A stretch of 64,000 nt of DNA from contig CAWFSF010000005.1 in the NCBI GenBank assembly GCA_963818475.1, positions 64,001-128,000 of the forward strand. The letters are read 5' to 3'. Origin of the DNA: Nitrospirota bacterium. Its GTDB lineage: Bacteria > Nitrospirota > UBA9217. The notes under the pieces are model-generated. The model did no database searches and had not been told where the DNA came from. It saw only the letters and a program-made list of their open reading frames with translations. How positions within the stretch are numbered: the stretch's first letter is position 1; each line of letters opens with the position of its first letter. A program made the translations under genes and the position numbers. Below, piece after piece: positions 36,608 through 58,042 of this stretch.

Positions 36608-37619
36608 CTACTGAATGCCGTTCGCCTTCCAGTATGCCTGCACTTTCGCCTTCAGCGATTTCGGGAGCGGAACATACACCAGTTCCTTGGCCTTCGCATC
36701 GCCGTTCTTGAAGGCCCAGTCAAAGAACTTGACGACCTTCACATTGGAATCCTTTTTCTCTTTGCCGAGAAGGATGAACGTCGCCCCTGCGATCGGCCAG
36801 GACTTTTTGCCCGGCGCATCGTTCAGCCAAAGGTAGAAATCTTTTTTCGGGTCGAAGTTGGCTGTTGCTGCAGCGTCCTCGAAGCTCTCGAAGCTCGGTT
36901 CCACGAACGTACCGGCGTGGTTCTTCAGGACCGTATGGGTGAGGTTGTTCTGTTTGGCATAGGCGAATTCCACGTAGCCGATGGAGTTCGCCTGCTGCTG
37001 GACATAATTGGCCACGCCCTCGTTCCCCTTCCCGCCGATGCCCGCGGGCCAGCTTACGGACGTGCCGGCGCCGACCTTTTCCTTCCAGGCAGGGCAAACG
37101 TCGCTCAAATAATCCGTAAAGATGGCTGTCGTACCCGAACCATCGGAGCGGTGGACCACCGTGATAGTATTGTCCGGGAGGTTCAGCTTGGGGTTCATTC
37201 CCTTGATCTTCGGATCATTCCAGGTCTTGATCTCTCCCATGTAGATCTTACATACGGATTCCGGAGTCGAGCCGCAATTCTCCGGCCTTGATGCCGGCAA
37301 TATTCACCACCGGCACGACACCGCCGATCACTGCCGGGAACTGGAGCAGGTTGTCCTTGGCAAGCTCTTCCGGTTTGAGCGGCTTGTCCGATGCGCCGAA
37401 ATCGACCGTCCGCTCGGTGATCTGCTTGATGCCGCCGCCCGAACCGATGGACTGATAGTTCAGCTTCATGCCGGTTATCTTGTTGTATTCATTGGCCCAT
37501 GCCGAATAAACGGGATAGGGGAACGTGGCGCCCGCGCCGTTCAGCATCTCTTCCGCCTGCGCCTGGTTGACCGACAGCATTCCGATCAACAGTAACGCGG
37601 TTGTCAAAATTCGTTTCAT
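36608..37619 (-). CDS. pstS: Phosphate ABC transporter substrate-binding protein (frameshift near 37270)
   Basis: GAGATFPYP, YQSIGSGGG, DFGASD, HRSDGSGTT, GKGNEGV. Confidence 0.96.
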
Positions 37620-37653
37620 CTCTTTTCTCCTTGTCATATTTTTATGTTAGCAC

Positions 37654-37708
37654 GTTATACCACAGAATTGTTACAGGATTGTTACAAGTTGATTAAGCTT
37701 TTGTTAAA
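37654..37708 (-). promoter_or_regulatory. Pho-box promoter of pstSCAB-phoU
   Basis: TTTAACAAAAG CTTAATCAACT TGTAACAATCC TGTAACAATTC TGTGG-TATAAC (four 11-bp units, then -10). Confidence 0.88.
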
Positions 37709-40564: not shown

Positions 40565-40619
40565 ACTATACCCACACTCTGTTACAGGAGTATGAAGCCT
40601 GGGTTAAATGTTGGTTACG
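40565..40619 (-). promoter_or_regulatory. Pho-box promoter of the REC-HK / CBS-HK / REC operon
   Basis: CGTAACCAACA TTTAACCCAGG CTTCATACTCC TGTAACAGAGT GTGGG-TATAGT. Confidence 0.8.
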
Positions 40620-40649
40620 GACGGACATGTATAAGGAGGCCGATTTCCG

Positions 40650-41892
40650 TTAAGCAACGCGGGTGCGAATGCTGTCCGTGATACGATAGCTCCAAGACCA
40701 GATACCGGTCTCCGGGCAGGGTGACAACCGGGAATCCTGCCCGATCACATACCGGTTCCCCCGCCAGACCACGGTCGAGCTCAAAAGCGGCACGAACCAC
40801 AGCGCTCCGATGATCAGGTCCTTGACCGGCACCAGGAAATACCGGAGGGGCGATTGCCGGTGAGCACAGGTGCGTCCTGCTGCCGATTCGATCATGCTCC
40901 CGAGAAGGAGGTCGCCCAGGACCTTGATGAGTCCGATGACCAGCCGCGAAAGAAAGCGTTTCGCGCGACGGGCCCGTGAGCAGGACCGGCAATGCAGCCA
41001 TGAACACCGGGTTCACGAGCAGTTCGGATATATATTTCGCTCCGCCGATCTTCCACCTGAGCTTGCCCCATCGGGTGTGGCGGTTCATGAACCGCTTGAT
41101 GTCCCAGTACTCGTTGACGTTGCTGATCAAATGGTTCGACAGCACGACCTTTTTGCCGCTCTTGTTCATTTCCCTGCCGATGATGAAATCCTCGGCCAGA
41201 ATGTCCTTGAAAGCGGAAAGGCCTCCCAGCGCCTCAAGATCCGTCTTTTTCATGAGCATTGACTTCCCGATAACGCAGGGCATGCCCAGGGCCTGGTCGA
41301 GGAAACTGACGCTTCCCATGATGAAAGAATTGAGATGGAGGTTTTCCAGCGTGGCGCCGAGGCTCCGTCCGCCAACCCCGTGGATGAGGTTGCTGACCAG
41401 TCCGACCGAGGGGTCCGCTGTCTGCCGCACAATCTCACGCAAATAGCTCTTGCCTACTATCACATTGCTGTCGCTGATGAGGATGTAAGGATGCTGGGCT
41501 TTCTGGTAGGCCGGTATGAGGTTGTTCACTTTCGGGTTGTGTCCGGCATGACACTTCTCGACAACGAGGGAGATGTTCCGGTCTGAGTACTTCTCCTGTA
41601 CCTTTTTTGCTACTTTGTAGGCCGGATCGTTGAGGTCCTGCAGGCAGAAAATAACTTCGTAGGTCGGGTAATCCTGGGTGCAGAAGCTTGCGAGGTTGTC
41701 GAACAAGTTGTCGTCAAGTCCCTTGAGGGGTTTCAGGATCGACACCGGCGGGGTATGGTCCATTGTATACGCTGTTGTCCGGGCTTCCGGTTTCGCCTTC
41801 TTTCTCAAAAGTGCATAGGTTGCTCCAACCTGGAGCAGGTAGAGAATGATCCCTATCATTGAGATCGCAGCACATATGAGAAATATGGTCAT
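40650..41892 (-). CDS. Ceramide glucosyltransferase-like / HpnI-like glycosyltransferase (GT21), frameshift near 40940
   Basis: PPVSILKPLKG, NPKVNNL, ISDSN, GKSML, LAEDF, RHTRW, VVWRG. Confidence 0.88.
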
Positions 41893-43653: not shown

Positions 43654-43708
43654 GGCAGTACCTCCTTCATGCTTTATAACGGGCCGCGAATACGCGCGTA
43701 GTGAGTCG

Positions 43709-43763
43709 ATACTACATGCCGGCCGTTACAGGAACATGACGATCTGGTGAAGTTTCTATTAAA
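43709..43763 (-). promoter_or_regulatory. Pho-box promoter of DUF3562 and the small TM protein
   Basis: TTTAATAGAAA CTTCACCAGAT CGTCATGTTCC TGTAACGGCCG GCATG-TAGTAT. Confidence 0.8.
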
Positions 43764-43774
43764 TTTGCATGTTC

Positions 43775-44020
43775 CCTTCAGGACCCGCGCCCTTAAAAGA
43801 AAGTCCGGGTGCTCCGCCAGAAGGGCCTCGTACTTCTCCACCGTGATCTTGTCGCCCGCATTGGCGTACCGGATCGCCTGATATGCCGCGAAGGCCTTCT
43901 CCTGCGGCGTCAGTTGCGCAAGAAAGGCCGGTTTCTGCCGGTAATAGGGGCCTGCCGGGGGTCTGCATAATCATCGAGGAATATACGGTTCCATGTGATC
44001 GCCTTCTTGAGATCGACGAG
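43775..44020 (-). pseudogene. Internal fragment paralogous to the TPR membrane protein at 47242..48383
   Basis: Reads LVDLKKAITWNRIFLDDYADPRQ..YYRQK..PQEKAFAAYQAIRYANAGDK...YEALLAEHPDFLLRA versus LVDLKKAMKW..DEYADARQ..PQEQAFADYQAIRFSNAGDK...YEALLARRPDFLLKA. Confidence 0.85.
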
Positions 44021-44079
44021 TTTGATTTCGGGGGGATGCCAAAGCAGTGCCAGGACAAGCAACGGAATGAACTTAAACG

Positions 44080-45099
44080 TTACCATGACGCCTTCCTCGG
44101 AGGGGCGGTTGCCGGATTAGCCAGGTAATTGGCGGTGAAAATATACTCACACAAGGCCTGCTTGAACGTCCCCCCTTCGCTCGTTCGCCCGGCAGCCTGA
44201 TCTGAAAGATATTTATTGAGCGCGGCAAGGAAGTTCTGATCGTTTATGCCGCCTTGAATTTTTACCAACGGCGCAACGACAAGGGGAAAATCGACCATCT
44301 CCTTTCCCGTCCCGAGTGCCAATCTCGCCTCCCATGCCCCTTCGCCCGGCAACACCGTGATGACCCAGCTTTTTTCGTCTACCTTCTGCACCGAAACGAG
44401 TTTCGCGTCCAACAGTGCGATATCGGGTGAATGATTCCCCTCGGCCTGCAGTTGCAGCCTGATCACGACCGGAGTTTTCCCGTCGGAAAGGGCAATGGCC
44501 GGATCCTGCGCTATCCTCTTCCCGTCATTGCGTTTAAAAAGGGCGGAAAAAGTCTGCAATCCCTTCTCTCCCTTGAATTCCCTGAATCGCTGCAGAACGC
44601 TCTTTTCCCGCTCATCGAAACTGATCAGCTTTGCCGCACCCGGCACTCTCGAGGCCGGTTCACCGCGGGGCTCGTCCGACGGGCCCGGCGGCGGGGAGTA
44701 GGTCAGGGCAGGGACGGGGAAGCTTTTCCCCGTTGTGTCCCTGACGGTTGCAGTTACCTGATTGATGACCCCGGGCAAATCTCCTTTTTTTTCGAACCTC
44801 AGATCGAGCTCGAAGGCCGCATCGGGATTTTCCCGGAACACATTGACAAGCAGCGTCCCCGGAGTATTTGCGTAAACATTAGTGAGGGTGCCTCCGTTCG
44901 CCGTCACCCGGGGATGCGCCAGGGAAGTCGTGTCGTAATCGATCGTTATGTCCATGGCTTCCACGCCGATGATATTATCACCCTCGATAAAAAACGCACC
45001 ATCGCCGTTGGGCGTGACAAGCATCTGCATCGCGGCAAAAGACCCGGCCGGGCAGAGAAGGACGAGCAACAGACCCATGATGCACACGGTGTTTCTCAT
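44080..45099 (-). CDS. Exported beta-rich protein (cohesin-like N-domain)
   Basis: Signal peptide; GVEAMDITIDYDTTSL beta-rich segment; Pro-rich linker; C-terminal EYIFTANYL. Confidence 0.7.
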   Translation of the reverse strand: MRNTVCIMGLLLVLLCPAGSFAAMQMLVTPNGDGAFFIEGDNIIGVEAMDITIDYDTTSLAHPRVTANGGTLTNVYANTPGTLLVNVFRENPDAAFELDLRFEKKGDLPGVINQVTATVRDTTGKSFPVPALTYSPPPGPSDEPRGEPASRVPGAAKLISFDEREKSVLQRFREFKGEKGLQTFSALFKRNDGKRIAQDPAIALSDGKTPVVIRLQLQAEGNHSPDIALLDAKLVSVQKVDEKSWVITVLPGEGAWEARLALGTGKEMVDFPLVVAPLVKIQGGINDQNFLAALNKYLSDQAAGRTSEGGTFKQALCEYIFTANYLANPATAPPRKASW

Positions 45100-45152
45100 C
45101 GCCTTTTCCCCTCGTTCATGACCCCAAAATGAATATGCTGCACGGGAGCGCG

Positions 45153-45767
45153 TCAGGGCTCGATTGCCGGTTTACTGTTGCTTTCACCCGGCAATGATAC
45201 GAGCCCTGCTTCCTTTGACATCAGGAACACCATCAACCCAAAGATTATGAAGAGAAAGCTCAGCAGGGTGATCGGCGGCAGCCCGCCGTTCCATTTCCGG
45301 ACCTGCAACCAGCCGTCCCAGCCCATGGCGAAAAGATGGCCTGCGACCAGGGCGTACACAGCGGCTGTCGTGGTTCTCCATTCCGCCGGCTTCAGGACGC
45401 AGGCATTCAGGCGCCAGATGCAATAAGCCGCCATCGCCCCGAAGAGGACCGTCGCCTCTCCAGTCAGGCTCATCTTGCCATTGTCGAAGAATTTATCAAA
45501 ATAGCTTTTTGAAAGAATCGAAAGCGATAAAAGGACATGAACGAAGACCAGGTTCGTGCAAGCTCGGCTCCAGAAAGCGGTAACTTCCCGCCGGCTGCGC
45601 AGGAGAGACATGGCTGCAATGAGCAGCGATACCGCCGCCGTCATGGAGAGGGCCTTGTTCAGAACATAAACCGGCACATGGATGAGTGAAACACCGCCGA
45701 ACCCGCAATATCGTACAACGGCATACATCGTTGTGGAAAACGCTACCAGTAATAATTGATTTACCAT
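45153..45767 (-). CDS. Integral membrane protein (about 6 TM, intramembrane His residues)
   Basis: 204-aa hydrophobic ORF; YVLNKALS, VFVHVLLS, VAGHLF, GW..W..GLPPITL resemble ferric-reductase-like TM segments. Confidence 0.7.
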   Translation of the reverse strand: MVNQLLLVAFSTTMYAVVRYCGFGGVSLIHVPVYVLNKALSMTAAVSLLIAAMSLLRSRREVTAFWSRACTNLVFVHVLLSLSILSKSYFDKFFDNGKMSLTGEATVLFGAMAAYCIWRLNACVLKPAEWRTTTAAVYALVAGHLFAMGWDGWLQVRKWNGGLPPITLLSFLFIIFGLMVFLMSKEAGLVSLPGESNSKPAIEP

Positions 45768-45821
45768 ACGTTATCGTTCCTTCTCTTCTCGCCCATTTAT
45801 CGGGTAGTTTTTCAATTTATT

Positions 45822-46967
45822 TCAAATCCCCCCGAACGGGCACTCCGGATCGGAAGCGGAGAAGTCGCCTCCCACGAACCCGGCCACGGCGCGGCACCCC
45901 CCCTTGCAGATTTCGAGATAGTCGCACGATCGGCAGGGCTCCGGCGCACGGTCAGTCCAGGTACGCAAGCGCGAAAGATGTTCCGAGCTGCTCCAGAGTC
46001 GGGGCAGCTCGAAAACGCTCTCCTCACCGGACAAGAAGGAGCAGCCCGCAAACCTGCCGTCCGAGCGGACCCCCAGAAGGACGTTGCCGGCCTCGCAGCC
46101 GTATACCGAGAACTGCTCCATCATCTTCTTGTCCGGCCGGTGCCAGCAGAACATCGGGACAAAGGAACAGTCGATTTTGGCCGGGACCCCGCAATCTAGG
46201 GAGAGGCGTCTGAGCATCGGATAGAATTCCCGGTTCTGGGCCGGAGTCAATCGCCGTTCGAAATAATTCTGTCTCCCCCTGCCCGAGGGTTTGAGGCGCA
46301 GAAGCTCCACATCGGAGAGCCCCCGTTCCCGGGCAAAGGTGAACAACTCGTGAAGGTGAGCGAAGCTCTGCCTGGTCACGACGCAGTTCAGGCCGACGTT
46401 GACGCCCGCCTCCAGAAGCATATCCACTCCGCGCATTGCCGCTGCGAAAGAAGCGGGACTCCGGCCGGCTTTCCCGTCACCCGCCGTGGCGTCGATGCTG
46501 ACGTTTACCTGGCCGAACATGCGGCATTGTGCGGCATATTCTCTGGACATCAAGACGCCGTTCGTGGTCAGGTTGGGGACGATGCCGCGGCTGCGCACAT
46601 AGGCGGCCAGTTCAAAGAAATCGGAGCGCTCCAGCGCCTCTCCGCCGCCCAGGGCCATATGGAACACCCCCATGCCGGCCAGCAGATCGACGGCCTTGCG
46701 AAACTCTTCAGCCGTCAGCTCGCCCGTGTCCGTTTTTCCCGAATCCATATAGCAGTGGCCGCATTGCTGGGAACAGGCGTTGGTCACTGAAAAATGGACC
46801 TCCAGCGGGGCGGAAAGAACACGGGTTTCCGGCCCTTCCCACAGCGGGCTGTGCTCGTGGCCCAGGCTCCGCATGAATTCCCGGTCCACGTGCACCAGCG
46901 TCGGGGGATTTTCCAATGACAGTATCCCCCCGAACGTCTCTAAGCGATGTTTCATGACGCCCATCAT
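45822..46967 (-). CDS. Radical SAM/SPASM domain protein
   Basis: CSQQCGHC, GGGEAL, TTNG, VSIDA; SPASM CEAG...DGRFAGC...CRSCDYLEICKGGC...DPEC. Confidence 0.95.
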   Translation of the reverse strand: MMGVMKHRLETFGGILSLENPPTLVHVDREFMRSLGHEHSPLWEGPETRVLSAPLEVHFSVTNACSQQCGHCYMDSGKTDTGELTAEEFRKAVDLLAGMGVFHMALGGGEALERSDFFELAAYVRSRGIVPNLTTNGVLMSREYAAQCRMFGQVNVSIDATAGDGKAGRSPASFAAAMRGVDMLLEAGVNVGLNCVVTRQSFAHLHELFTFARERGLSDVELLRLKPSGRGRQNYFERRLTPAQNREFYPMLRRLSLDCGVPAKIDCSFVPMFCWHRPDKKMMEQFSVYGCEAGNVLLGVRSDGRFAGCSFLSGEESVFELPRLWSSSEHLSRLRTWTDRAPEPCRSCDYLEICKGGCRAVAGFVGGDFSASDPECPFGGI

Positions 46968-46991
46968 TGCTCCTTCTGGCCATGTATCCGA

Positions 46992-47189
46992 TCATCGGCC
47001 GTTCACTTTTTTTTGCGCCTCTTCCAGTCGCCCGTCCTCTTGAGCTTTGGCCGCAACGGCAATCGCCGCGACAGTGTTAAAGAGGACCGTGGCTGCCGCT
47101 CCCGCGGTGAAGAAGACGATTATATCTGCGCCGACGCTGCTGGAGTTCGGATTGTAGCCGGTTTTGATCTTCAGGATGCGTCCTCTCAT
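46992..47189 (-). CDS. 65-aa peptide with GYNPNSSS motif and TM helix (candidate rSAM substrate)
   Basis: MRGRILKIKTGYNPNSSSVG + hydrophobic IIVFFTAGAAATVLFNTVAAIAVAA + charged tail; 24 nt upstream of the rSAM gene. Confidence 0.8.
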   Translation of the reverse strand: MRGRILKIKTGYNPNSSSVGADIIVFFTAGAAATVLFNTVAAIAVAAKAQEDGRLEEAQKKVNGR

Positions 47190-47241
47190 TTTTCTTGCCT
47201 TCCTTGTCCGGATTTATTGCGCGCTGCCCCGGCTCTCACGT

Positions 47242-48383
47242 TCAATTGATCTTTTCACCTGACACGGGTTTCTGGACTGCTTGCGGATTTTGTCCTGTTT
47301 CGAACCAGCCGCGGTACTTGACGGCAAAATCGTCCATGATCTTGGGGCCGTTCGGCTGGTATATAAAGAACAGGTAGAGCACCGCCGTCGTCATCAACAC
47401 AGTAAGGAGAGGACTGAGCCAAAGCAGCGCGCGCCGCCGTGTCTGCCAGAAGTTCCCACTGGTCAAAAGCAGCAGCCAGAAGAGGACCGGCAGGTTGATG
47501 ACGGCCGCGATGTAGACCACGGAGTCCGGAAAGCGAAATTGATCGGCTGAACTGTCGATGGCATAGAAGGACGGTATTCTTGAGGCGGCCAGGAGGAGCC
47601 AAAGACAACTGACTATCATGAAGGTTTTGAGCGAGGCCCGGGTCATCCCCTCCCAGGGCTTCATCAAAAGGGCCGCGGCCCAAAGGACCGCGACGACTCC
47701 CCAGGCAACGCCTGCCCAGACCGTTGTCATCCGCCAGTGGCGGCGGGCCTTCGCATGAGCCAGCCGATCGCTTTCGGTCACGTCTTTACCGCCGCGTTGA
47801 ACAAGGTACTGAAAGGCGAGATAGCTTTGCCCGCGCTTGTCCAGGCGGTCATAGGCCTGGCCCAGCTCCCGTTGGACCTCGGCCTTCAAAAGAAAATCGG
47901 GGCGCCTGGCCAGCAGCGCCTCGTACCTTTCCACAACAGCCTTGTCTCCCGCATTGGAGAACCGGATGGCCTGGTAGTCCGCGAAGGCCTGCTCCTGGGG
48001 CAGGAGTGCCGCGAGCAGGGAAATTTTGTCTCGGTAGACAATCGCCTGACGCGCGTCGGCATATTCATCCCTGTATACCCCGTACCATTTCATGGCCTTC
48101 TTGAGGTCGACAAGGTTGTTTTCATAAAGGTTCCCCAGCATCTGCACGGCATACCGGCGCGCGTTGCTTCCCCGGTGCTTGTCGCTATTTCCAGATTGAC
48201 GGTTTCGGCGTCGGCATAGCGGCCTTGGACAAAGTCCTGTTGGGCTTTCTTCTGCAAATCATCCGCCAAGGTACTCGCCGGTGATGCCGGGGCGACGAGG
48301 GGCAGACAAAGCAGACCAGCGAAAAATGCCAAGACGAGCAGAGGAGTGTATTTTAGTTTCGGCATGTCATTCAGGGGTATCAT
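47242..48383 (-). CDS. Exported TPR domain + C-terminal multi-TM protein (frameshift near 48170)
   Basis: Signal peptide, TPR-like helices (AQQDFVQGRYADA, ELGQAYDRLD), four hydrophobic segments; GAGGA RBS. Confidence 0.8.
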
Positions 48384-48399
48384 CTTTATCCTCGCCGGA

Positions 48400-48454
48400 A
48401 TATTACTCTATTTCTGTTACGGGGATATTACGTCGATATTATATTTGTGTTAAA
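48400..48454 (-). promoter_or_regulatory. Pho-box promoter of the TPR-peptide-rSAM operon
   Basis: TTTAACACAAA TATAATATCGA CGTAATATCCC CGTAACAGAAA TAGAG-TAATAT. Confidence 0.82.
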
Positions 48455-48507: not shown

Positions 48508-49867
48508 CTAAGACGAGATCAGCCGCAAGTTGAACAACCGCTCGATTAGCCATGTAAAGCCCAGCATGAAAATAGCCAGCGACACTCCAAAGGTCACTTT
48601 TCTGAATTCCATTTTACTTTTAAGCAGGTACAGGACCGGCAACAGTACCAGGAAAATCATCAGTTGTCCGACTTCCACACCCAGGTTGAAGGAGACTACC
48701 GATACCAGCAGGTTCGATTTTCCGACGATCAACTCCTGGAGAACGCTTGCGAAACCGAAGCCGTGGATCAGCCCGAAACCGAACGTCACGAGCCAGCGGT
48801 AATTAACTTTTTTCTTGAACAGGTTTTCAAGCGCGACAAAGCAAATGGAAAAGGCTATGACCGATTCCACAATCCGGGAATTCAAGCTGACGACCTGCAT
48901 CGCCGCCAGGAGCAGGGTAATGCTGTGCGCTACCGTAAATGCGGTGATTATCTTCAAGACTTCCTTGATTGACAGCCCGATCACGATGAGCGCCAGGAGA
49001 AATGCCATGTGGTCGTAGCCGGTCAGAATATGTTCGATGCCGAGCAGGATGAATTGACCGATAGAGGTCCACACCGGATGGCCCGCCGGACTGCGCCGGA
49101 CACTTTGTTGTGCAACAGGCGCGCCGGGGTTGTTCAGGACCTGCTTGATGCGCTCCGGATCGGTGCGTACTGCCTCTTTTCCTTGAGCGGCTGCGCTCAT
49201 TGGCTTCCCGGCTGTTGCGTGTACGGCCGCACTATCCTTTCGATTTTGCGTTGCCCGCTCTTCGTCGTCTTCGGCCCCGGGACTGCCGGCCACAGGGCCC
49301 TGAATGGTAAATTCCCAGACACGGACAGTGTTCTCGAAAAAGGTACTGTCGTTCAGGCTGCGAAAAATCCAGGACCTTTTGAAGGTCCGCACCGACGGCA
49401 TCCGTCAAATAGAAAAACGCAAGGTTGACGTGCTGGTTGTCCGTTTCATCGAACAGCATGCGATACTCGATTTTGACCTGGTTTGGGCTGTTGTGGAAGC
49501 CGATGTTTTCCGCCGCAAGCCATATTTGAAAATAGTTATTCTCATTTCTGGTAAGTTTCGTGACTTTTAGGGGATATGTCGTCCCGTTGACGGAGAGGGA
49601 CAGTTTGTCATTCACACAGGGCTGAAGCGCGGAAGCGGCGATGTTTGGGAGCTGTTCAGGGGAAAGAGCTTCGGGATTGTAACCAGCTTCCTTGACCCCT
49701 TTGATGTCGCCGAATAAAAGCGGGTTGAACTCCATGATGGCGGTGAGGCTGTTTTTTCCGAAACACCACCGGGAGCCCCCCATGGGCATGTTGTGAGCGG
49801 ACACCGGGACAGCTATGAAAAGAAACAGGATCAGGAAGATGAATGATAAAGGTTTTCTGAATGGCAT
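48508..49867 (-). CDS. HupE/UreJ-family membrane protein with N-terminal periplasmic domain (frameshifted)
   Basis: Signal peptide then AH; GIEHILTGYDH, TAFTVAHSITL, FGLIHGFGFA, FNLGVEVGQ. Confidence 0.88.
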
Positions 49868-49912
49868 AATCGTCAAAACCCCCCGGCTGCCTTTTGATGA
49901 ATGCAAAGGAAA

Positions 49913-50010: not shown

Positions 50011-52759
50011 CTACTGGTACGTTATAACAAGCTTCGGCGCTTTGGTCGCCGACACGTCGTACGCCCTGGCGGTCCGCTTGCCGGTGCCGGTGACGATGAA
50101 GGCCATGGCGTTGTTCTGCGCCCAGCCCGTACGGTTCACGATTTCCTGGACGATCGTCTTCAGGTCCGGGGTCCGCTGGTCCGCGCCCGCGGCGTCCACG
50201 GTGTTCCAGGCAACCGGGCTCCAGGCTACGGAGGCGGTCGTTTTGGCACGGGAGGAGACGTTGTAGGCCGCCGTGGTGAAGGTGGCCGCATTGTCCGCGG
50301 CCTGGCCCTTGATGGTCAGGCTCGTGGCGGTGGAGCCGGTCTCGTCCACGGTGAACTGGATGTAGGCATTGGTGATGGTCTTGCCCTTCGGCACGTTCAC
50401 ATTGGTGAAGCGCATGCCGACGTACTGGTTGCCGGTCGTGGAGGAGTCATAGACCAGTTCCAGGTCGCTGCTGTTGTTGTACATCGTGCCGCCGGTCTGG
50501 CGCTCTTCCACGTCGTCATTGCTTGTGTTCACCTGGGAGTTTACGGTGACGGGCGTGGAAGCGCTGGGCGTGGCGGACGCCTGGTTGGAGTTGCCGCTTT
50601 CACCGTTGGCGTTCACGGCGGACACGACATAGTAATAGGTCGTACCGTTGGTCAGGCCGGTGTTGACATAGGTCACGGCGGTCACGCCGGTGGCCACGGT
50701 CGTGTAAGGTCCGCCGCTCACGGTGGCGCGCTTGACGCTGTAGCTCGTTGCGCCGGAGGACGCGGTCCAGGAAAGGCTGACCTGTCCGTTGCCCGCGGTC
50801 GCGGCGAGGCCCGTGGGGGCAACCGGTGGGGCAGGCGCGGTCGGCGTGGCCGAGGCCTGGTTGGAGTTGCCGCTCTCGCCGTTGGCGTTCACGGCGGTCA
50901 CGACGTAGTAATAGGTCGTGCCGTTCGTGAGGCCCGTGTTCGTGACGTTCGTCGAGGTCACGCCCGCCGCCACGGTCGTGTACGGCCCGCCGCTCACGGT
51001 GCTGCGTTTTACGTTGTAGCTCGTTGCGCCGAAGGAGGCAGTTCCAGGAAAGGTTCACCTGGGCATTGCCCGCAGTCGCGGTGAGGCCCGTGGGAGCCGC
51101 GGGAACGGACGCGCCGTGGGTCACGGTAATCGTATCGACCACCGTGCCGTCGGTCTTTTTGGCTTTCATGGTCATGGTGTTGCCGTTGATGTCGAAGGAG
51201 CAATAGCTCAATCCGCTGTAGCCCGCAACAACGTTGGGCTGCCCCATATCGACGGCATAGAGCGGCGCGCCGCCGCCGCCGTCGGTGATGTGCGGAATAT
51301 TATTTACCATGGCGCGGACATAGTTGTGGTTGTGGCCCGTCAGGACCATATCGACCCCGTACTGGAGAACGAGGGGCTGGATGACGTTCTGGACCGTGGT
51401 GTTGTTGGCGTGGGTGCCCGCGGCCCAGCCCGGCTCGTGGATCAGGATGATCTTCCAGGGCTTGGTCGTCGTGGCGAGATCGTTGACGAGCCAGTTGTAC
51501 TGCGCGGTGCCGGAGGTGTAGCCGCCGCCCGTGTACTGGTCTACCACGCTCACGTGGAGCGGGCCGTAATCAAAGGACCAATAGGCGCCTGCCGTATACG
51601 GGTAAGGATAGTACTTCGCATAGTAGGTGCCGGTGCCCTCGTGGTTGCCCTTGACCCCGTTGATGGGGGTCTCGGCCAAAAGTGCGCGGGTCTGCGGGTT
51701 CGCGTTGAACCACTCAGACGTCCAGGCGGATTCGGCGTCGCTCGAGACCCAGTCCCCGACCTGCAGGGTCAGGCTCTGGAACGCGGGGTCCGTTGCGTAT
51801 TCCGCGCGCATCCGGTTAATGACCTGTTCCATGCTCGCCGGGTTGGACCGGGTGTCGCCGAAGGCGAGGAACTTCACCGCCGTTGCGCTTGCGGCCGGCG
51901 CGGCCACGAACGAGCCCGTGCCGTAGACGGTCCCGCCCGCGGTGGCTGATACCTGGTAGTAATACTTGGTGGAAGGCGTTAAGCCCGTGATGGCGTACTT
52001 GTGCTGGTGGCTGGAGCCGTACTCCGCCACGTTGGCGCTGCCCATGGTGTAATTCGTGTCCTGGTCCACCACGGTGAAGTGGACCGGGCCGTAGTCAAAG
52101 GACCAGTAGAAGTTGGCTGCATAGGGATAGGGATAGTACTTCTTATAATATGTGCCGGTCCCTTCGTGGTTGCCCTTGACGCCGTTGATGGGGGTTTCGG
52201 CAAACAGAGCACGCGTCTGCGGGTTCGCATTGAACCACTCCGCGGTCCAGGCGGATTCGGCGTCACTCGAAACCCAGTCTCCGGCCTGCAGGACAAGGCC
52301 CTGGTATGCGGGGTCCGAAGCGTATTCCGCGCGCATCTTCGTGACCACTTTTTCCATGTCCGACGGTGTGGAGCGGGTATCCCCGAAGGCGAGGAACTTC
52401 ACAGCCGTGGCCGTGGCTGCCGGAGCGGTAACAAACGACCCGGAGCCGTACACGGTCCCGCCTGCGGTGGAGATAACCTGGTAATAATACTTGGTATCCG
52501 GCTGTAGGCCGGTGATGGCGTACTTGTGCTGGTTGCTGGTGCCGTACTCCGCGACGTTCGCGCTTCCCAGGCTGTAGCTGGTGTCCGTGCCCCACTTGAT
52601 CACGTTCGTTTCCGTCGCGTTGTCCTGCCAGAGCACGGTCATTGCCGCGTTCGTGTTTTCATAGATCAGGTAAGGCACTTTGGTTATGCCGGCAAAGGCC
52701 GCCGTAGTGCATAACAAAAAGACCAGTAAAACTCCGATGCTTCTTTTTAGTACATTCAT
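50011..52759 (-). CDS. Secreted purple-acid-phosphatase-like metallophosphoesterase with FN3 repeats and C-terminal beta domain (frameshift near 51035)
   Basis: Signal peptide from ATG 52759 (AAGGAGG RBS); FGDTR, GDW, GNHE, IHEP, GHNH; two FN3 repeats (TGLTNGTTYYYVV). Confidence 0.9.
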
Positions 52760-52904
52760 AATTCCTCCTTTTTCAGGTCGTTGCGACCCGGAATGAGAGA
52801 AGTTGCATGCAGCGACCTCTCCTGCTTCAAAATCTGACTGCAAAGAAATGTGAGAAGCACCTCCTTTTCTGGCCATCCGATTTCGCCGACGCGTGGCTGC
52901 GTTA

Positions 52905-53200
52905 TTCATGATTGTGTGCGACGCTTCGCTTTTGGTCGGACCATTCGGGGCCGTTCGGCTTCTTATGGCAGTCTGATTCAGCTCTTGCGGGCTTAGTCCT
53001 CGCCAAGCCCTGGACCCTGCCGGGATATTCTTGTAGCAGGCTGTGCAATCGGTCTTGACTTCATGCACGTGATGAGCGTGATAAAAGACTACCTTGCCGT
53101 TTTTGGCGGGAACTCCCTGTGATCACCGGCAGCTTCAGCAAAGAAAGCGCCCGAAAATGTCGCTATGCCGCGATCACCACAATAAATCCGGGAAGCACTA
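52905..53200 (-). pseudogene. Decayed triheme cytochrome c7 (PpcA-family) gene
   Basis: Across frames: EFPAKNGKVVFYHAHH..DCTACY..PGRVQG..DCHK..GPTKSEASH versus PpcA AKNGDVKFPHKAH..DCKKCH..PGKIEG..GCH..GPTKCGECH. Confidence 0.7.
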
Positions 53201-55281: not shown

Positions 55282-55707
55282 TTATGCATGGGTCACCTCT
55301 TTGGTATCACTGCATTTTTCCGGTGAAAATACTACCGCAAGCGTCCGGATACCGCCGATCACCAGGATCAGGGCCGCGAGCGCCATGATCATGCCCGCCT
55401 CCAGCTTGTGCTGATAGAGCCCGACCATGATCTCGCGCAGGACAAAGACCAGCGCCGCGTCGGTGATGAAGGTGATCTTGAGCCGGTGCACGGTGAAGTA
55501 TTCTATGAGGCTCCTGAGCAGTTCTATCACGATGAACATGGAAAGAATATTCGTTACGATCATGTCAAAAGCGGCAGCCAATGTCTGACTTCCAAACACC
55601 GCACGAAGGTCGAGAATGACCCGGGCGATGCCCATCAAAAGAGCAAGGATCACGATCGGGATCATGAATTTGATCATGCTGTCGACGATCTTGCTAAAGT
55701 ATTTCAT
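55282..55707 (-). CDS. Phosphate-starvation-inducible PsiE-family membrane protein
   Basis: Four TM segments; FIVIELLRSLIEYF, ITDAALVFVLREI. Confidence 0.85.
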   Translation of the reverse strand: MKYFSKIVDSMIKFMIPIVILALLMGIARVILDLRAVFGSQTLAAAFDMIVTNILSMFIVIELLRSLIEYFTVHRLKITFITDAALVFVLREIMVGLYQHKLEAGMIMALAALILVIGGIRTLAVVFSPEKCSDTKEVTHA

Positions 55708-55800
55708 GGGTTTTGTCCTTTTCAAAAAGTGTGGGACGGGCTGATAAGGCCCGTCCCCAGGAGGTGGGACGATGAAGCCGGATACGCTGCTGTGATGGCG

Positions 55801-56969
55801 TTAGAAGCTGTAATTGACGCCGAACGGAGAGTACCGCCGGGTCTAAACCGGCAGCCGGCGCATACGCTCCACCAGCGCCGCCCTGACCCAGACCGTAGGT
55901 GGCACCAGCGTCGTTTTTCGTGGCTGCGTACAGAATATATGCAGACGGTGCGCTTGGTAGAAGGCATGGTCCACTCCGACAGCCATGAACGTTGCGGCTC
56001 GTTTCTGCGACCGAATCGCCGTCGTCGGCGATGCCGAATGCGAGCTTGATGGTTTCCTTACCGAGTTTCTGGCTCACCGCAAGGTACATGGCGTCGCGGG
56101 TGATCGCTGAAGCAGCGGTGTCATCTTTGAGGGTCTCGAAGACGAACCCTATCTTCGTGCCGAAACCGATGGTGTAGCCCGCACCGAGTCTGGCGCCCGT
56201 AACCTCTTTACCAGCGACGTCCCAGGTGGCTACGCCGTTCTTGTGACTTTCAGCCGCCAGAGCGATTGCCAGGGCGCCTGCTTTAAAGACAGCCGAGGCG
56301 GAAACGAGGCGCGCGTCCGCGGTGGTGTTTGCAGTTTCCGATCCGGACTGTGACGTGGCCGCGCTGATCTGCAAGCCTCCCCAGGAGGGAGAAGAATAGG
56401 CGATCACGTCCTTGGGCCGAAGTTCGAAGTTCGATGCTCCGTTGACGTTGCCGATGATCGCATTGTAGTCGGCCATGGAATCGCCGAAGGGATCGAACTG
56501 GCCGGTCGCCGTCTTGTAAGGAGTGTCATGGGTGCCGAGGATCAGCATGCCCAAGCTCATCCGATTTCAGGCCGACATAGCTGTTGCGCAGCCCGATGCT
56601 GTTCACGCTCGTCGTGCTGACCGCGCCGGTCGTCGTATTGGTTACGCCCGTTGCTACGGTCGTGGTCGTGCCGTCCACGTTGACGCCCAGTTCCAGCTGG
56701 TACACGGCGGAAAATCCATCGTTCAGTTCCTCCGCACCCTTGAAGCCTAAGCGCGACGAGTTGCTGGAGACCCTGCTCAGGCTGGTGTCCGCCCCCGCCG
56801 CTTTGCTGCCGGTGTCTATCAGGTCGACGGACAGCTTGGCCGCGCCGTAAACCTGTAGGGTGCCGGTTGGAGACGCTTTTTCAACATCCACTATTTCGTG
56901 CGCCGCAAAAACCGGGGAACCGAAACTGCTTACCGCTACTACCGCTAACGCTGCTAAAACCTTTTTCAT
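55801..56969 (-). CDS. Gram-negative porin (frameshifted)
   Basis: Signal peptide; LQVYG, SNSSRLGFKGAEEL, RNSYVGL, GTHDTPY, YSSPSWGG; C-terminal GVNYSF. Confidence 0.88.
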
Positions 56970-57325: not shown

Positions 57326-58042
57326 CTATCTGCCTTCTTTCAGTCTTTCAGCAAAATAGACCGGCAAACCGCTGCCAGTTATTGCCGCGGCGACTTTTTC
57401 GACATCGTAGGCAACGCGGATGAAGTCCACCTTCACTCCTGCCGGTGTTATCTCTATGAGCGTAAAGCATGCTCTCGGATCGCCATCCTTCGGTTTTCCG
57501 ACGCTCCCGGCATTGATAAATGTTTTCCCAATGAACTCTTTTTTGTAAGGCTTATGGGTATGGCCGTAGATCAGAATGTCCGCGTCCGTTTTTGACGCCA
57601 TCTCAAGAAAGAACTTCTCCGGCCTATCCTCAAACCAGTAGAGGTTGTTCTTACGCGGCGTTGCATGAAACAACAGTATCTTCCTGCCTTCGGCGCTGAA
57701 CTGTATCTCCGCCGGCAAATTTTTCATATAGTCCCTGCTTTTCGGTGATGCGTGGTTCTTCGTCCAGACAAAGGACAGGTGCGCCATCTCCTCCTGCACA
57801 GGCTCCTCGGCTTTGCAGCCGCAATGTTCCCGATCGTGCGCCACTGCCTCGTCGTAATTGCCCTGAACGCCTTCGATGCCGTGCTCGATCATGAAATCAA
57901 CGACGTCATTCACAAAAGGCGCGTAACCGCCGAGATCGCCGAGATGATACAATCTGTCAACGTGTATCGCCTTTGCCGAATCATAGACGGCTTTGAGCGC
58001 CTCTATATTTCCATGAACATCGCCGAGTATCCCGATTATCAT
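57326..58042 (-). CDS. Calcineurin-like metallophosphoesterase (YfcE-like)
   Basis: GDVHGN, LGDLGGY, GNYD, GHTH, NAGSVGKP. Confidence 0.92.
   Translation of the reverse strand: MIIGILGDVHGNIEALKAVYDSAKAIHVDRLYHLGDLGGYAPFVNDVVDFMIEHGIEGVQGNYDEAVAHDREHCGCKAEEPVQEEMAHLSFVWTKNHASPKSRDYMKNLPAEIQFSAEGRKILLFHATPRKNNLYWFEDRPEKFFLEMASKTDADILIYGHTHKPYKKEFIGKTFINAGSVGKPKDGDPRACFTLIEITPAGVKVDFIRVAYDVEKVAAAITGSGLPVYFAERLKEGR

Follow-up and report, generated by a model that had tools for sequence, protein, structure and literature searches.

Does a 65-residue membrane peptide encoded beside a radical SAM (rSAM)/SPASM enzyme in a Nitrospirota genome belong to a peptide-modification system that is already known, and why should such a pair lie behind a phosphate-type promoter? 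The window analyzed here (the whole 64,000 bp stretch of DNA examined) carries on its minus strand five co-oriented open reading frames with intergenic gaps of 52, 24, 54 and 53 nt (Table 1). The first-pass annotation had described these as one five-gene operon that includes a candidate undescribed modification system. The five co-oriented reading frames are indeed present, but the TPR-TM gene is split over two frames, and the operon boundary as first drawn is too narrow, because a co-oriented upstream HupE/UreJ_2 fusion gene and metallophosphoesterase (MPE) gene accompany the cluster in other genomes.

Table 1. Positions of the features of the peptide–rSAM locus in the window.
Feature	Coordinates	Strand	Basis
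TPR + 4-TM membrane protein	47242..48383	(-)	ORFs; two frames in window
65-aa NPNSSS peptide	46992..47189	(-)	ORF; homolog alignments
Radical SAM/SPASM enzyme, 381 aa	45822..46967	(-)	Pfam, NCBIfam, ortholog alignment
Accessory polytopic membrane protein, 204 aa	45153..45767	(-)	Alignment, n=10
Accessory exported protein, 339 aa, without known family	44080..45099	(-)	ORF; Pfam/NCBIfam negative
Pho-box-type promoter	48400..48453	(-)	Hexamer architecture as at pstS promoter
Metal-capture domain + HupE/UreJ_2 permease fusion	48508..49906	(-)	Pfam; relatives
Exported purple-acid-phosphatase-like MPE, FN3 + C-terminal domains	50011..53068	(-)	Pfam
pstS promoter, reference site for the regulatory claim	37650..37707	(-)	Pho-box architecture; PstS by NCBIfam

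The promoter and its phosphate-starvation surroundings

A Pho-box-type promoter had been proposed ahead of the cluster, and its architecture recurs 10.7 kb away, ahead of pstS. Four hexamers in 11-bp phase (TTAACA at 48453–48448, ATAATA at 48442–48437, GTAATA at 48431–48426 and GTAACA at 48420–48415) are followed after 9 nt by a −10-like TAATAT at 48405–48400, and the pstS promoter has the same four phased [G/T]TAAYA hexamers, the same 9 nt spacing and a −10 box. The exact pattern GTAAYA-N5-GTAAYA occurs four times in the 4.66-Mb genome, the pstS promoter being one of the other three occurrences, and 7 of the 11 sites genome-wide with a phased score of at least 16/18 are inside the window. Of 28 type-A loci, 14 have a site scoring at least 15/18 ahead of the TPR gene, where 0.02 would be expected per window. 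The cluster promoter element is real and non-random, and it has the features that define Pho-regulon promoters: 11-bp direct repeats that replace the −35 element and are common to the pst genes of the same genome. The surrounding Pho island contains a PhoB/PhoR-like pair, pstSCAB-phoU, PsiE, a porin and phosphoesterases; PstC, PstB and PhoU exceed their own profile cut-offs, and the PhoB-like regulator reaches 273.7 bits against a cut-off of 296.2. The motif shared with pstS and the island around it suggest that the cluster is regulated by phosphate, as was first supposed.

The radical SAM/SPASM enzyme and its relatives

The SPASM domain is defined by a C-terminal seven-cysteine pattern that includes CX2CX5CX3C and goes with two auxiliary clusters. 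The enzyme belongs to Radical_SAM (PF04055; 62.2 bits against a gathering cut-off of 29.5, E = 9e-17), it matches SPASM families of NCBIfam across its whole length, and the pattern C345-x2-C348-x5-C354-x3-C358, which can be read directly in its sequence, makes it a SPASM protein. The cluster motif C65-x3-C69-x2-C72 and nine more cysteines (C267, C274, C291, C309, C345, C348, C354, C358 and C376) are the same in all 12 orthologs, in agreement with the CxxxCxxC and full SPASM set originally reported. Ahead of this core is an N-terminal extension of ~48 residues in which F12, G13, G14, P21, P22, L24, V27 and D28 are likewise invariant in these sequences; no Pfam PqqD match that would indicate a PqqD-like recognition element (RRE) was found in the enzyme, and the extension is only ~48 residues long. 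There are 1913 relatives at E ≤ 1e-40, and among the matches listed only generic names occur.

The enzyme falls below every curated cut-off in NCBIfam. The top-scoring curated family is MftC (TIGR03962; residues 49–379 on model positions 6–334 of 339, E = 4e-51), but its 174.2 bits are short of the cut-off of 265, and the closest solved structure by sequence, PqqE (PDB 6c8v; 88 bits, E = 6e-24, residues 45–376), leads to a family (TIGR02109) whose cut-off of 381 is far above the 95.9 bits obtained. These two, together with SkfB and CteB, are the closest solved and curated relatives, and all four modify peptides. Identity with the heme-pathway enzymes was considered and rejected: NirJ2 (131.6 bits), AhbD (127.4), NirJ1 (125.4), NirJ (114.1) and AhbC (103.5) all score lower than MftC and far under cut-offs of 500–650, although NirJ2 and AhbD are only moderately below MftC (131 and 127 versus 174 bits). 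The rSAM protein of the GeoRSP system (TIGR04303) was also rejected, at 125.8 bits against a cut-off of 400.

The NPNSSS peptide

The peptide begins MRGRILKIKTGYNPNSSSVG... and consists of a basic N-terminal strand (GRILKIK), the segment G-Y-NPNSSS-x-G, a hydrophobic helix and a charged, variable tail. Its family has 387 representatives at E ≤ 0.001 with the signature G-R-I-L-K-x-K-x-G-Y-NPNSSS-x-G followed by a hydrophobic helix and charged tail, and no existing family model for it was found in Pfam or NCBIfam. The motif is conserved as the first reading of the locus would have it: 47 diverse members, with an overall identity of just 25–48%, all have N13, N15, S16 and S18. All synonymous codons are in use at the conserved positions, and both serine codon families are represented at S17 and S18. 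The invariant part is only ~18 residues long; in many members it starts with the initiator Met or close to it, and the helix follows immediately; this core is nearly identical across phyla, whereas the helix sequence is very variable outside close relatives. The Tyr of the motif is replaceable (V, L, M, H, S and F are seen in the family alignment), so that a Tyr-based reaction like those of MftC or PqqE appears unlikely and no single target residue can be named. Counted over the 15 residues next to the hydrophobic stretch, the C-terminal flank has 4.0 K+R and the N-terminal flank 2.2 (138 diverse members), the 12 residues ahead of the NPNSSS motif have 3.8, and the predicted membrane topology is ambiguous.

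The mycofactocin and PQQ systems resemble this one in having, respectively, an rSAM/SPASM enzyme beside a small peptide and a peptide-modifying SPASM enzyme. The substrate of MftC, however, is a C-terminal Val-Tyr, whereas the conserved segment here is N-terminal, its Tyr is replaceable, the tail is variable and charged, and there is a membrane helix; neither a Val-Tyr-ending MftA nor a PqqD-like MftB was found among the annotated conserved neighbors. The peptide also lacks the PqqA-like Glu/Tyr motif, and PqqB, PqqC and PqqD were not found among the annotated neighbors. With the scores above, these missing partners agree with the initial statement that neither layout is matched.

A conceptual parallel is offered by anSME (PDB 4k36–4k39), a SPASM enzyme that oxidizes a Ser or Cys in a protein destined to be a hydrolase, since here too a maturation module would lie beside exported phosphoesterases. 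The match of the enzyme to anSME is partial (rSAM core, ~46 bits, with no stretch passing alone), the peptide lacks the anSME target motif (C/S)-x-(P/A)-x-R, and we know of no need for formylglycine in purple-acid-type phosphatases. C-terminal sorting signals such as LPXTG and PEP-CTERM consist of a short motif, a hydrophobic helix and basic residues, and the peptide has a similar three-part look when compared by sequence alone; it differs from sorting-signal proteins in lacking both a cargo domain and an N-terminal signal peptide.

Coupling of the peptide to the enzyme

Are the peptide and the enzyme a functional pair? In the phylum sample they occur in the identical 8 of 401 genomes. Among 79 loci from many phyla that were collected by the peptide motif alone, 58 have an ortholog of the enzyme within 2 kb of the peptide, and in 41 the distance is 400 nt or less, so the synteny expected of a pair is seen. 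Five genomes without the enzyme at the peptide locus all have a full-length ortholog elsewhere (387–559 bits), and in some Myxococcota the two genes are unlinked.

A predicted complex of the two proteins scored 0.82 (best of three controls, 0.01) and passed a mark reached by 58 of 80 complexes with solved structures and by 2 of 110 mismatched pairs, the run having been made with its own alignments and riding ligands, unlike the tool's calibration; part of this pass may be likeness, because solved rSAM–peptide complexes exist. At least 92% of contacts recur between runs, with a partner pLDDT of 68 or more. In the model, peptide residues 1–27 thread the active-site cleft with the N-terminus against the enzyme's N-terminal extension, which pairs with the peptide as a strand, and the predicted contacts include this extension, residues flanking the CX3CX2C loop, the GGE region and auxiliary-cluster cysteines.

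Neighboring genes

The conserved partners of the pair are the TPR-4TM protein, present in 52 of the 79 loci, and exported purple-acid-phosphatase-like enzymes, an MPE being present in 53; these enzymes had been missing from the first-pass list of partners. That list held instead the TPR-4TM protein, which stands, and the 204-aa and 339-aa proteins, which occur in only 9 and 6 of the 79 loci and are lineage-specific accessories. The MPE belongs to Pur_ac_phosph_N (54.4 bits, cut-off 30) and Metallophos (70.9 bits, cut-off 21.5), and its homologs have signal peptides; its true start probably lies downstream of 53068, the naive ORF start. The TPR-4TM protein has a signal or anchor segment, a helical-repeat domain in the periplasm and, at its C-terminal end, four TM helices. 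No Pfam family was found for it, and Foldseek with an AF2 model of the L018 ortholog (pLDDT 81.1) gave generic TPR proteins only, for example BamD (E = 3e-3). The alignment of its membrane part contains no conserved Cys, His, Asp or Glu that would hint at a sorting protease.

In the 204-aa protein H30, H77 and H144 are invariant in 10 of 10 sequences, which bears out its description as a membrane protein with His residues; a weak pointer to PF01794 came from Atlas (score 0.84, 19% of cluster members), and the protein is possibly related to ferric-reductase/heme-b membrane proteins. The 339-aa protein has no family in Pfam or NCBIfam, and its signal-peptide-like N-terminus suggests that it is exported, as proposed.

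The HupE fusion is present in 28 of the 79 loci and belongs to HupE/UreJ_2 (PF13795; 162.5 bits, cut-off 24.5, E = 8e-48). In relatives it is one protein of ~465 aa, L018 among those with the fused form, and its start here is likely the Met of MPFRK at about 49867. A His directly follows the predicted signal-peptide cut (...VSA/H), and an N-terminal His is found in 6 of 6 sequences. Signal peptide, first mature His, periplasmic domain and HupE/UreJ_2 permease follow the layout outlined for Anglerase-HupE/UreJ-2 and DUF6702 metal-capture proteins (Nat Commun 2025, PMC12537917), although the DUF6702 match is under its cut-off (E = 0.0075) and the likeness to that outline concerns this neighbor gene and not the peptide–rSAM pair. 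No protease or ABC exporter was found among the annotated neighbor clusters of the 79 loci, annotation having covered the largest clusters only, and the earlier remark that none accompanies the cluster agrees with this.

Proposed function and alternatives

The rSAM/SPASM–peptide system is real and apparently undescribed, and we give a probability of roughly 0.55 to the reading that the cluster is a member of a widespread, unnamed peptide-maturation system of this type that is expressed here within the Pho regulon. At low phosphate a PhoB-type regulator would bind the four hexamers between 48453 and 48415, to judge from the motif common to pstS, and would switch on the TPR-4TM, peptide, rSAM and two accessory genes. 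According to the co-fold model the cytoplasmic enzyme would strand-pair peptide residues 4–10 through extension residues 23–31 and the SPASM hairpin, and this binding would put G-Y-NPNSSS-x-G into the SAM/cluster cleft, where a 5'-deoxyadenosyl radical could take a hydrogen from a core Asn or Ser and so lead to oxidation or an intrapeptide cross-link. The modified peptide would be neither cut nor exported, and its helix would hold it in the membrane next to the TPR-4TM protein; that the product stays there is suggested by the conserved neighbors, among which neither a protease nor an exporter was annotated. Gene linkage suggests that the module would serve the accompanying exported purple-acid-phosphatase-like enzymes.

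An alternative that we consider unlikely is that the peptide is a partner and not a substrate, serving in the membrane as a small subunit to tether or gate the soluble enzyme beside the TPR-4TM protein while the true substrate is something else, for example a lipid, a tetrapyrrole or a phosphoesterase precursor. An N-terminus and polar helix positions that are conserved across phyla typify a structural subunit more than a natural-product precursor, but outside close relatives the helix sequence varies widely; NirJ2 and AhbD are the next-best profiles, but the closest solved and curated relatives modify peptides; and although the module is linked to membrane and exported proteins and has no annotated protease or exporter beside it, the predicted complex has the peptide in the active-site cleft and not on the surface.

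It is less likely still that the frameshifts are real and the cluster is a decaying remnant that no longer works in this genome. The TPR-TM gene is 97 aa and then 301 aa in another frame compared with the intact L018 homolog, and a frameshift near 48190 is indicated because its homologs are single proteins of ~375 aa; the HupE fusion and MPE genes also change frame (~49300–49400 and ~50600–51000), which makes three switches within ~5 kb, and a truncated second copy of the TPR gene lies at 44086–43674. However, pstS and a porin gene in the window are likewise split in this 7-contig, 91%-complete genome, which fits assembly indel errors, and the peptide, rSAM and both accessory genes are intact. 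The one sequencing run found contains 5% of the sampled words and does not extend over the three switch sites.

A classical RiPP pathway, in which the modified N-terminal segment is cleaved and then released or exported by an unlinked protease and transporter and the hydrophobic part is a C-terminal follower or recognition element, is very improbable: rSAM/SPASM–peptide pairs usually yield released products, and the separation of peptide and enzyme in some genomes means that other parts could be unlinked too, but the annotated conserved neighbor clusters hold no protease or exporter, the short invariant part often starts at the initiator Met or close by and runs right up to the helix, and a core so alike across phyla is unlike those of bioactive RiPPs.

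A tentative and rather doubtful further reading is that the peptide is a new kind of ribosomal, rSAM-modified membrane subunit, a peptide-derived prosthetic element staying in the membrane with the TPR-4TM protein, which the exported purple-acid-phosphatase-like enzymes would need for their maturation, their anchoring or their supply of electrons or metal. If true, this system would add to the bacterial response to phosphate starvation a branch not seen before, and one that extends over more than ten phyla whose members are mostly anaerobes.

Gene content of the operon and its surroundings

Five co-oriented open reading frames lie on the minus strand, separated by gaps of 52, 24, 54 and 53 nt, as the first-pass annotation had described, and four of them bear out their assigned character: a 65-aa peptide with one hydrophobic helix and a charged tail, a radical SAM/SPASM enzyme (rSAM), a 204-aa membrane protein with conserved histidines, and a 339-aa protein with a signal-peptide-like N-terminus. 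The first gene, TPR-4TM, does encode the expected signal or anchor, helical repeats and four transmembrane helices, but the copy in the window is split over two frames (97 aa, then 301 aa), the switch lying near 48190 when it is compared with intact homologs of ~375 aa. Pfam supplies a family name among the five genes for rSAM only and has no model covering TPR-4TM, and a Foldseek search of the PDB with the TPR-4TM model returned only generic TPR proteins, with no match for the membrane part.

Eleven loci from named genomes, collected with rSAM as query, show that the cluster is wider than had been proposed. The order TPR-4TM, peptide, rSAM is found in 9 of these; all 11, like the window, carry an exported purple-acid-phosphatase-like metallophosphoesterase (MPE) with Pur_ac_phosph_N and Metallophos domains, and most have a ~465-aa protein in which a periplasmic domain is joined to a HupE/UreJ_2 permease (PF13795, E 7e-47). 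A histidine stands right behind the predicted signal-peptide cut of this periplasmic domain in 6/6 cases, and the layout of the fusion matches that of the anglerase-HupE/UreJ-2 metal-capture proteins described in PMC12537917.

Just downstream of the 339-aa gene, two short ORFs resemble TPR-4TM residues ~75-178 (at most 56% identity to the ortholog of the homologous locus L018) and are a truncated second TPR-4TM copy. Since the 339-aa gene directly precedes a TPR gene in Geobacter-type loci, a second cluster may have undergone partial deletion at this place.

Features of the window, with coordinates where available
Feature	Position	Strand	Remarks
Small metallophosphoesterase	57326-58042	-	Metallophos_2
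Porin	55694-56969	-	split over two frames
MPE (large phosphoesterase)	53068-50011	-	frame change
HupE fusion	49906-48508	-	frame change
Pho-box element before TPR-4TM	48453-48400	-	site at ≥16/18
TPR-4TM	48383-47242	-	N-terminal signal/anchor, helical-repeat domain, four C-terminal TM helices
Peptide, 65 aa	47189-46992	-	MRGRILKIKTGYNPNSSSVG, then hydrophobic helix and charged tail
rSAM, 381 aa	46967-45822	-	
Membrane protein, 204 aa	45767-45153	-	H30, H77, H144 unchanged in 10/10 sequences
339-aa protein	45099-44080	-	signal-peptide-like start
Truncated second TPR-4TM copy	43674-44086	-	two short ORFs, two frames
GT21 glycosyltransferase	40615-41892	-	HpnI-like, 229 bits, under cut-off
Pho-type site before hybrid gene	40565-40607	-	16/18
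Hybrid response-regulator/histidine-kinase gene	40575-39325		
Exact hexamer pair before pstS-pstC	37685		pstS site, ≥16/18
pstS	36608-37637	-	split over two frames
Further Pho-type site	35426		≥16/18
pstC, presumed pstA, pstB, phoU			PstC, PstB, PhoU over cut-offs
PhoB-like regulator			273.7 bits vs cut-off 296.2
PhoR/PnpS-like kinase			
PsiE			

A Pho-type promoter within a Pho island

The Pho-box-type promoter claimed for the operon is supported. Ahead of the TPR gene, a 124-nt gap contains TTAACA, ATAATA, GTAATA and GTAACA in exact 11-bp phase, followed after 9 nt by TAATAT, and the pstS site likewise has four phased hexamers and the same 9-nt spacing to its -10 element, TATAAC. The exact pair GTAAYA-N5-GTAAYA has four matches in the 4.66 Mb genome, one other being that directly before pstS-pstC. 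Another, on contig C6 (position 266187, plus strand), is found where a small ORF begins, 5' of a gene for a group-II-intron-type reverse transcriptase, and is probably unrelated to Pho control. When three phased hexamers were scored genome-wide with a threshold of ≥16/18, 7 of the 11 matches fell in the 64-kb window, where they make four sites; the one before the hybrid response-regulator/histidine-kinase gene, with 9-nt spacing to TATAGT, suggests a Pho-controlled secondary two-component system.

Among 28 loci of the window's type, 14 have a site of at least 15/18 upstream of the TPR gene (50–100 nt upstream in 13, 222 nt in one), where background expectation is 0.02 per upstream interval searched; most of the other 14 come from Geobacter-type or "delta proteobacterium" records. 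In several loci a terminator-like hairpin stands just 5' of the element, and the TPR gene therefore begins its own transcription unit. From its gene content (Table), the window as a whole is a Pho island on one strand, in which the GT21 and Metallophos_2 pair is reminiscent of the lipid remodelling that bacteria carry out with PlcP and a glycosyltransferase when starved of phosphate.

Coupling of the peptide and rSAM

Across 401 sampled genomes of the phylum, the peptide and the rSAM ortholog (E ≤ 1e-60) occur in exactly the same 8 genomes, and both are missing from the five further genomes of the genus. Searching 185,579 species genomes for the pattern K-x-G-[YFH]-NPNSSS returned 193 matches; 180 of them were confirmed, and 79 loci were kept, which by depositors' labels span at least a dozen phyla. 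Those labels may differ from genome taxonomy for L018, L023 and L030, since the TPR genes of L018 (labelled Nitrospirota) and of a genome placed in the same family as the window's are 100% identical. The expected synteny was found: an rSAM ortholog is in the fetched flank of 58 of the 79 loci, never more than 2 kb from a peptide and within 400 nt in 41. Of the 21 rSAM-less loci, seven stop within 2.4 kb downstream of the peptide; for five of the 21 the whole genome was searched, and each has a full-length ortholog elsewhere (387–559 bits).

The two membrane proteins had been proposed as constant neighbours, and this stood for TPR-4TM (52 loci) but not for the 204-aa histidine protein (9 loci); the 339-aa protein is found in 6. 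Other flanking genes are a metallophosphoesterase (53 loci), the HupE fusion (28), a TlpA-like thioredoxin (21), a phosphoesterase-CcdA fusion (19) and a second peptide (17). Blind clustering of all ORFs ranked rSAM (58 loci), phosphoesterase (54) and TPR-4TM (53) at the top. A 591-aa ORF in L069 that seemed to fuse rSAM to the 204-aa protein is an artefact, since the tblastn matches are in different frames and the NCBI protein there has 383 aa.

Three layouts recur. The first is the window's; the second, which is widespread, runs peptide 1, TlpA, phosphoesterase-thioredoxin-CcdA, peptide 2, TPR-4TM, rSAM; the third comprises minimal or unlinked forms, chiefly in Myxococcota. Examples of the second are L019 (1-6300), L072, L078, L079, L085 and L091, among others, and its phosphoesterase is joined to a CxxC domain and to a membrane domain of the CcdA/DsbD type. 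This layout suggests electron transfer to the periplasm as a theme that recurs; the His-rich 204-aa membrane protein might fill this role in loci of the window's type.

The peptide family

The peptide has 209 close relatives at E ≤ 0.01, and against 1.84 billion representatives a profile search found 387 at E ≤ 0.001. The first 148 of these are 49–126 aa long except for one of 331 aa (P0147), which looks like an over-extended ORF. Most of the 148 share the consensus [KR]-G-[KR]-[IV]-L-[KR]-[IVL]-K-x-G-[Y, rarely F/L/M/H/V/S]-N-P-N-S-S-S-[ILVM]-G, preceded by 0–55 aa and followed by an uncharged stretch of ~25–27 residues and then a charged tail; the N-terminal part is absent from three fragments, and the NPNSSS core varies in a few. 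In 47 diverse members (25–48% identical to the window's peptide) N13, N15, S16 and S18 are invariant, so the motif is indeed conserved, and G3, L6, K9, G11, P14 and S17 are shared by at least 90%. The conserved positions use the full set of synonymous codons, with serine codons of both families at S17 and S18, and selection is therefore on the protein; this set was chosen by amino-acid pattern and informs on codon spread only. NCBIfam gave no consistent family over the 47 members, Pfam has no model for the peptide, and longer proteins yielded no fused forms, a result of little weight.

A 19-residue window of mean hydropathy ≥1.6 is present in 262 of 265 members. The 12 residues ahead of the motif average 3.8 K+R and 0.08 D+E, and within 15 residues of the uncharged stretch 138 diverse members have 4.0 K+R on the C-terminal flank versus 2.2 on the N-terminal flank (C-flank higher in 99). 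The motif must meet rSAM in the cytoplasm; judged from these residues, the peptide may be N-in, N-out after modification, or a re-entrant anchor.

rSAM and its modelled complex with the peptide

The enzyme matches Pfam Radical_SAM (E 9e-17), and the predicted cysteine set is complete: C65-x3-C69-x2-C72 and nine more, including C345-x2-C348-x5-C354-x3-C358, are invariant in 12/12 orthologs. The best 25 of 60 NCBIfam matches (E ≤ 0.01) are all under their curated cut-offs (MftC 174 against 265, NirJ2 132 against 500, AhbD 127 against 500, GeoRSP 126 against 400, PqqE 96 against 381), which places it outside those characterised families, as had been supposed. Its closest solved structures are PqqE, SkfB, CteB, MoaA and anSME, and the 120 listed of its 1913 relatives at E ≤ 1e-40 bear generic names only.

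We co-folded rSAM (from an alignment of 12) and peptide residues 1–32 in the presence of SAM and three 4Fe-4S clusters, as the first-pass annotation had suggested, and obtained scores of 0.82, 0.82 and 0.87, versus 0.01 for the best of three controls; the calibration mark was reached by 58/80 solved complexes and 2/110 mismatched pairs, in a set-up whose alignments and riding ligands differ from ours. As solved rSAM-peptide complexes exist, part of the score may reflect likeness to them. At least 92% of contacts agree between runs, with partner pLDDT of at least 68. Peptide residues 4–10 pair in the model with rSAM 23–31 and 285–287, the partner being a conserved ~48-aa extension absent from MftC-type models, and peptide 1–27 further contacts rSAM 58–60, 73 (beside the cluster loop), 103–108, 130–134, 151–155, 192–194, 219–223, 262–270 and 309–311. 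The modelled contacts follow the route of a substrate; less probably, the peptide is a non-substrate tether.

Proposed mechanism and its significance

The mechanism to which we commit is that a Pho-controlled unit makes the peptide, that rSAM would capture its basic N-terminal strand and perform radical chemistry on its Asn/Ser core, and that the modified peptide would stay in the membrane with TPR-4TM and serve the exported purple-acid-phosphatase-like enzymes. Computation supports the regulation and, through the model, the pairing; we infer the reaction, the membrane location and the phosphoesterase link. A released RiPP with unlinked export parts is an unlikely alternative: in its favour, unlinked forms of the system do occur; against it, no protease or ABC exporter is among the annotated (larger) neighbour clusters of the 79 loci, as had been noted for the operon. 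That the cluster is a decaying copy in this genome could be read from its split genes, but with pstS, porin, HupE fusion and large phosphoesterase each split, frameshifts are frequent in this assembly, and so many in a 7-contig, 91%-complete genome suggest assembly indel errors (one public read run held 5% of sampled words, its five short contig pieces lying outside the frameshift sites).

Among known chemistries, a glycyl-radical signature was set aside, the spacing before G-Y being off by one residue and the enzyme being of SPASM type; three-residue cyclophane (triceptide) and MftC/PqqE-type Tyr chemistry were set aside because the aromatic position is replaceable. The N-S-S sequon was likewise considered as a possible glycosylation site and set aside.

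Literature text searches found nothing relevant on NPNSSS, on rSAM/SPASM enzymes with purple acid phosphatase, the Pho regulon or metallophosphoesterase/CcdA/thioredoxin, or on a precursor peptide with a TM helix (subscription-only literature and supplements lay outside their scope), and neither these nor NCBIfam or Pfam hold a named family for the pair. Pairs of an rSAM/SPASM enzyme and a neighbouring peptide are known already; the substrate architecture, partners and regulon are new. Peptide-acting enzymes of this class have so far been those of cofactors (PQQ, mycofactocin), matured enzymes (sulfatases) and secreted natural products. Here a short, nearly invariant motif joined to a membrane helix is the apparent substrate; it is kept across many phyla, and the system is linked to exported phosphoesterases as well as, in this genome, to the Pho regulon. 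The system can be tested directly in two hosts that are in culture, Geomesophilobacter sediminis Red875 and Desulfosarcina variabilis Montpellier. If the proposed mechanism is true, the substrates of these enzymes would gain a new class, and Asn or Ser residues would probably undergo a reaction of a new kind; thousands of small proteins annotated as "hypothetical", as well as entries labelled only "radical SAM/SPASM", would acquire a function, and an unrecognised requirement of anaerobic phosphate scavenging would be indicated.
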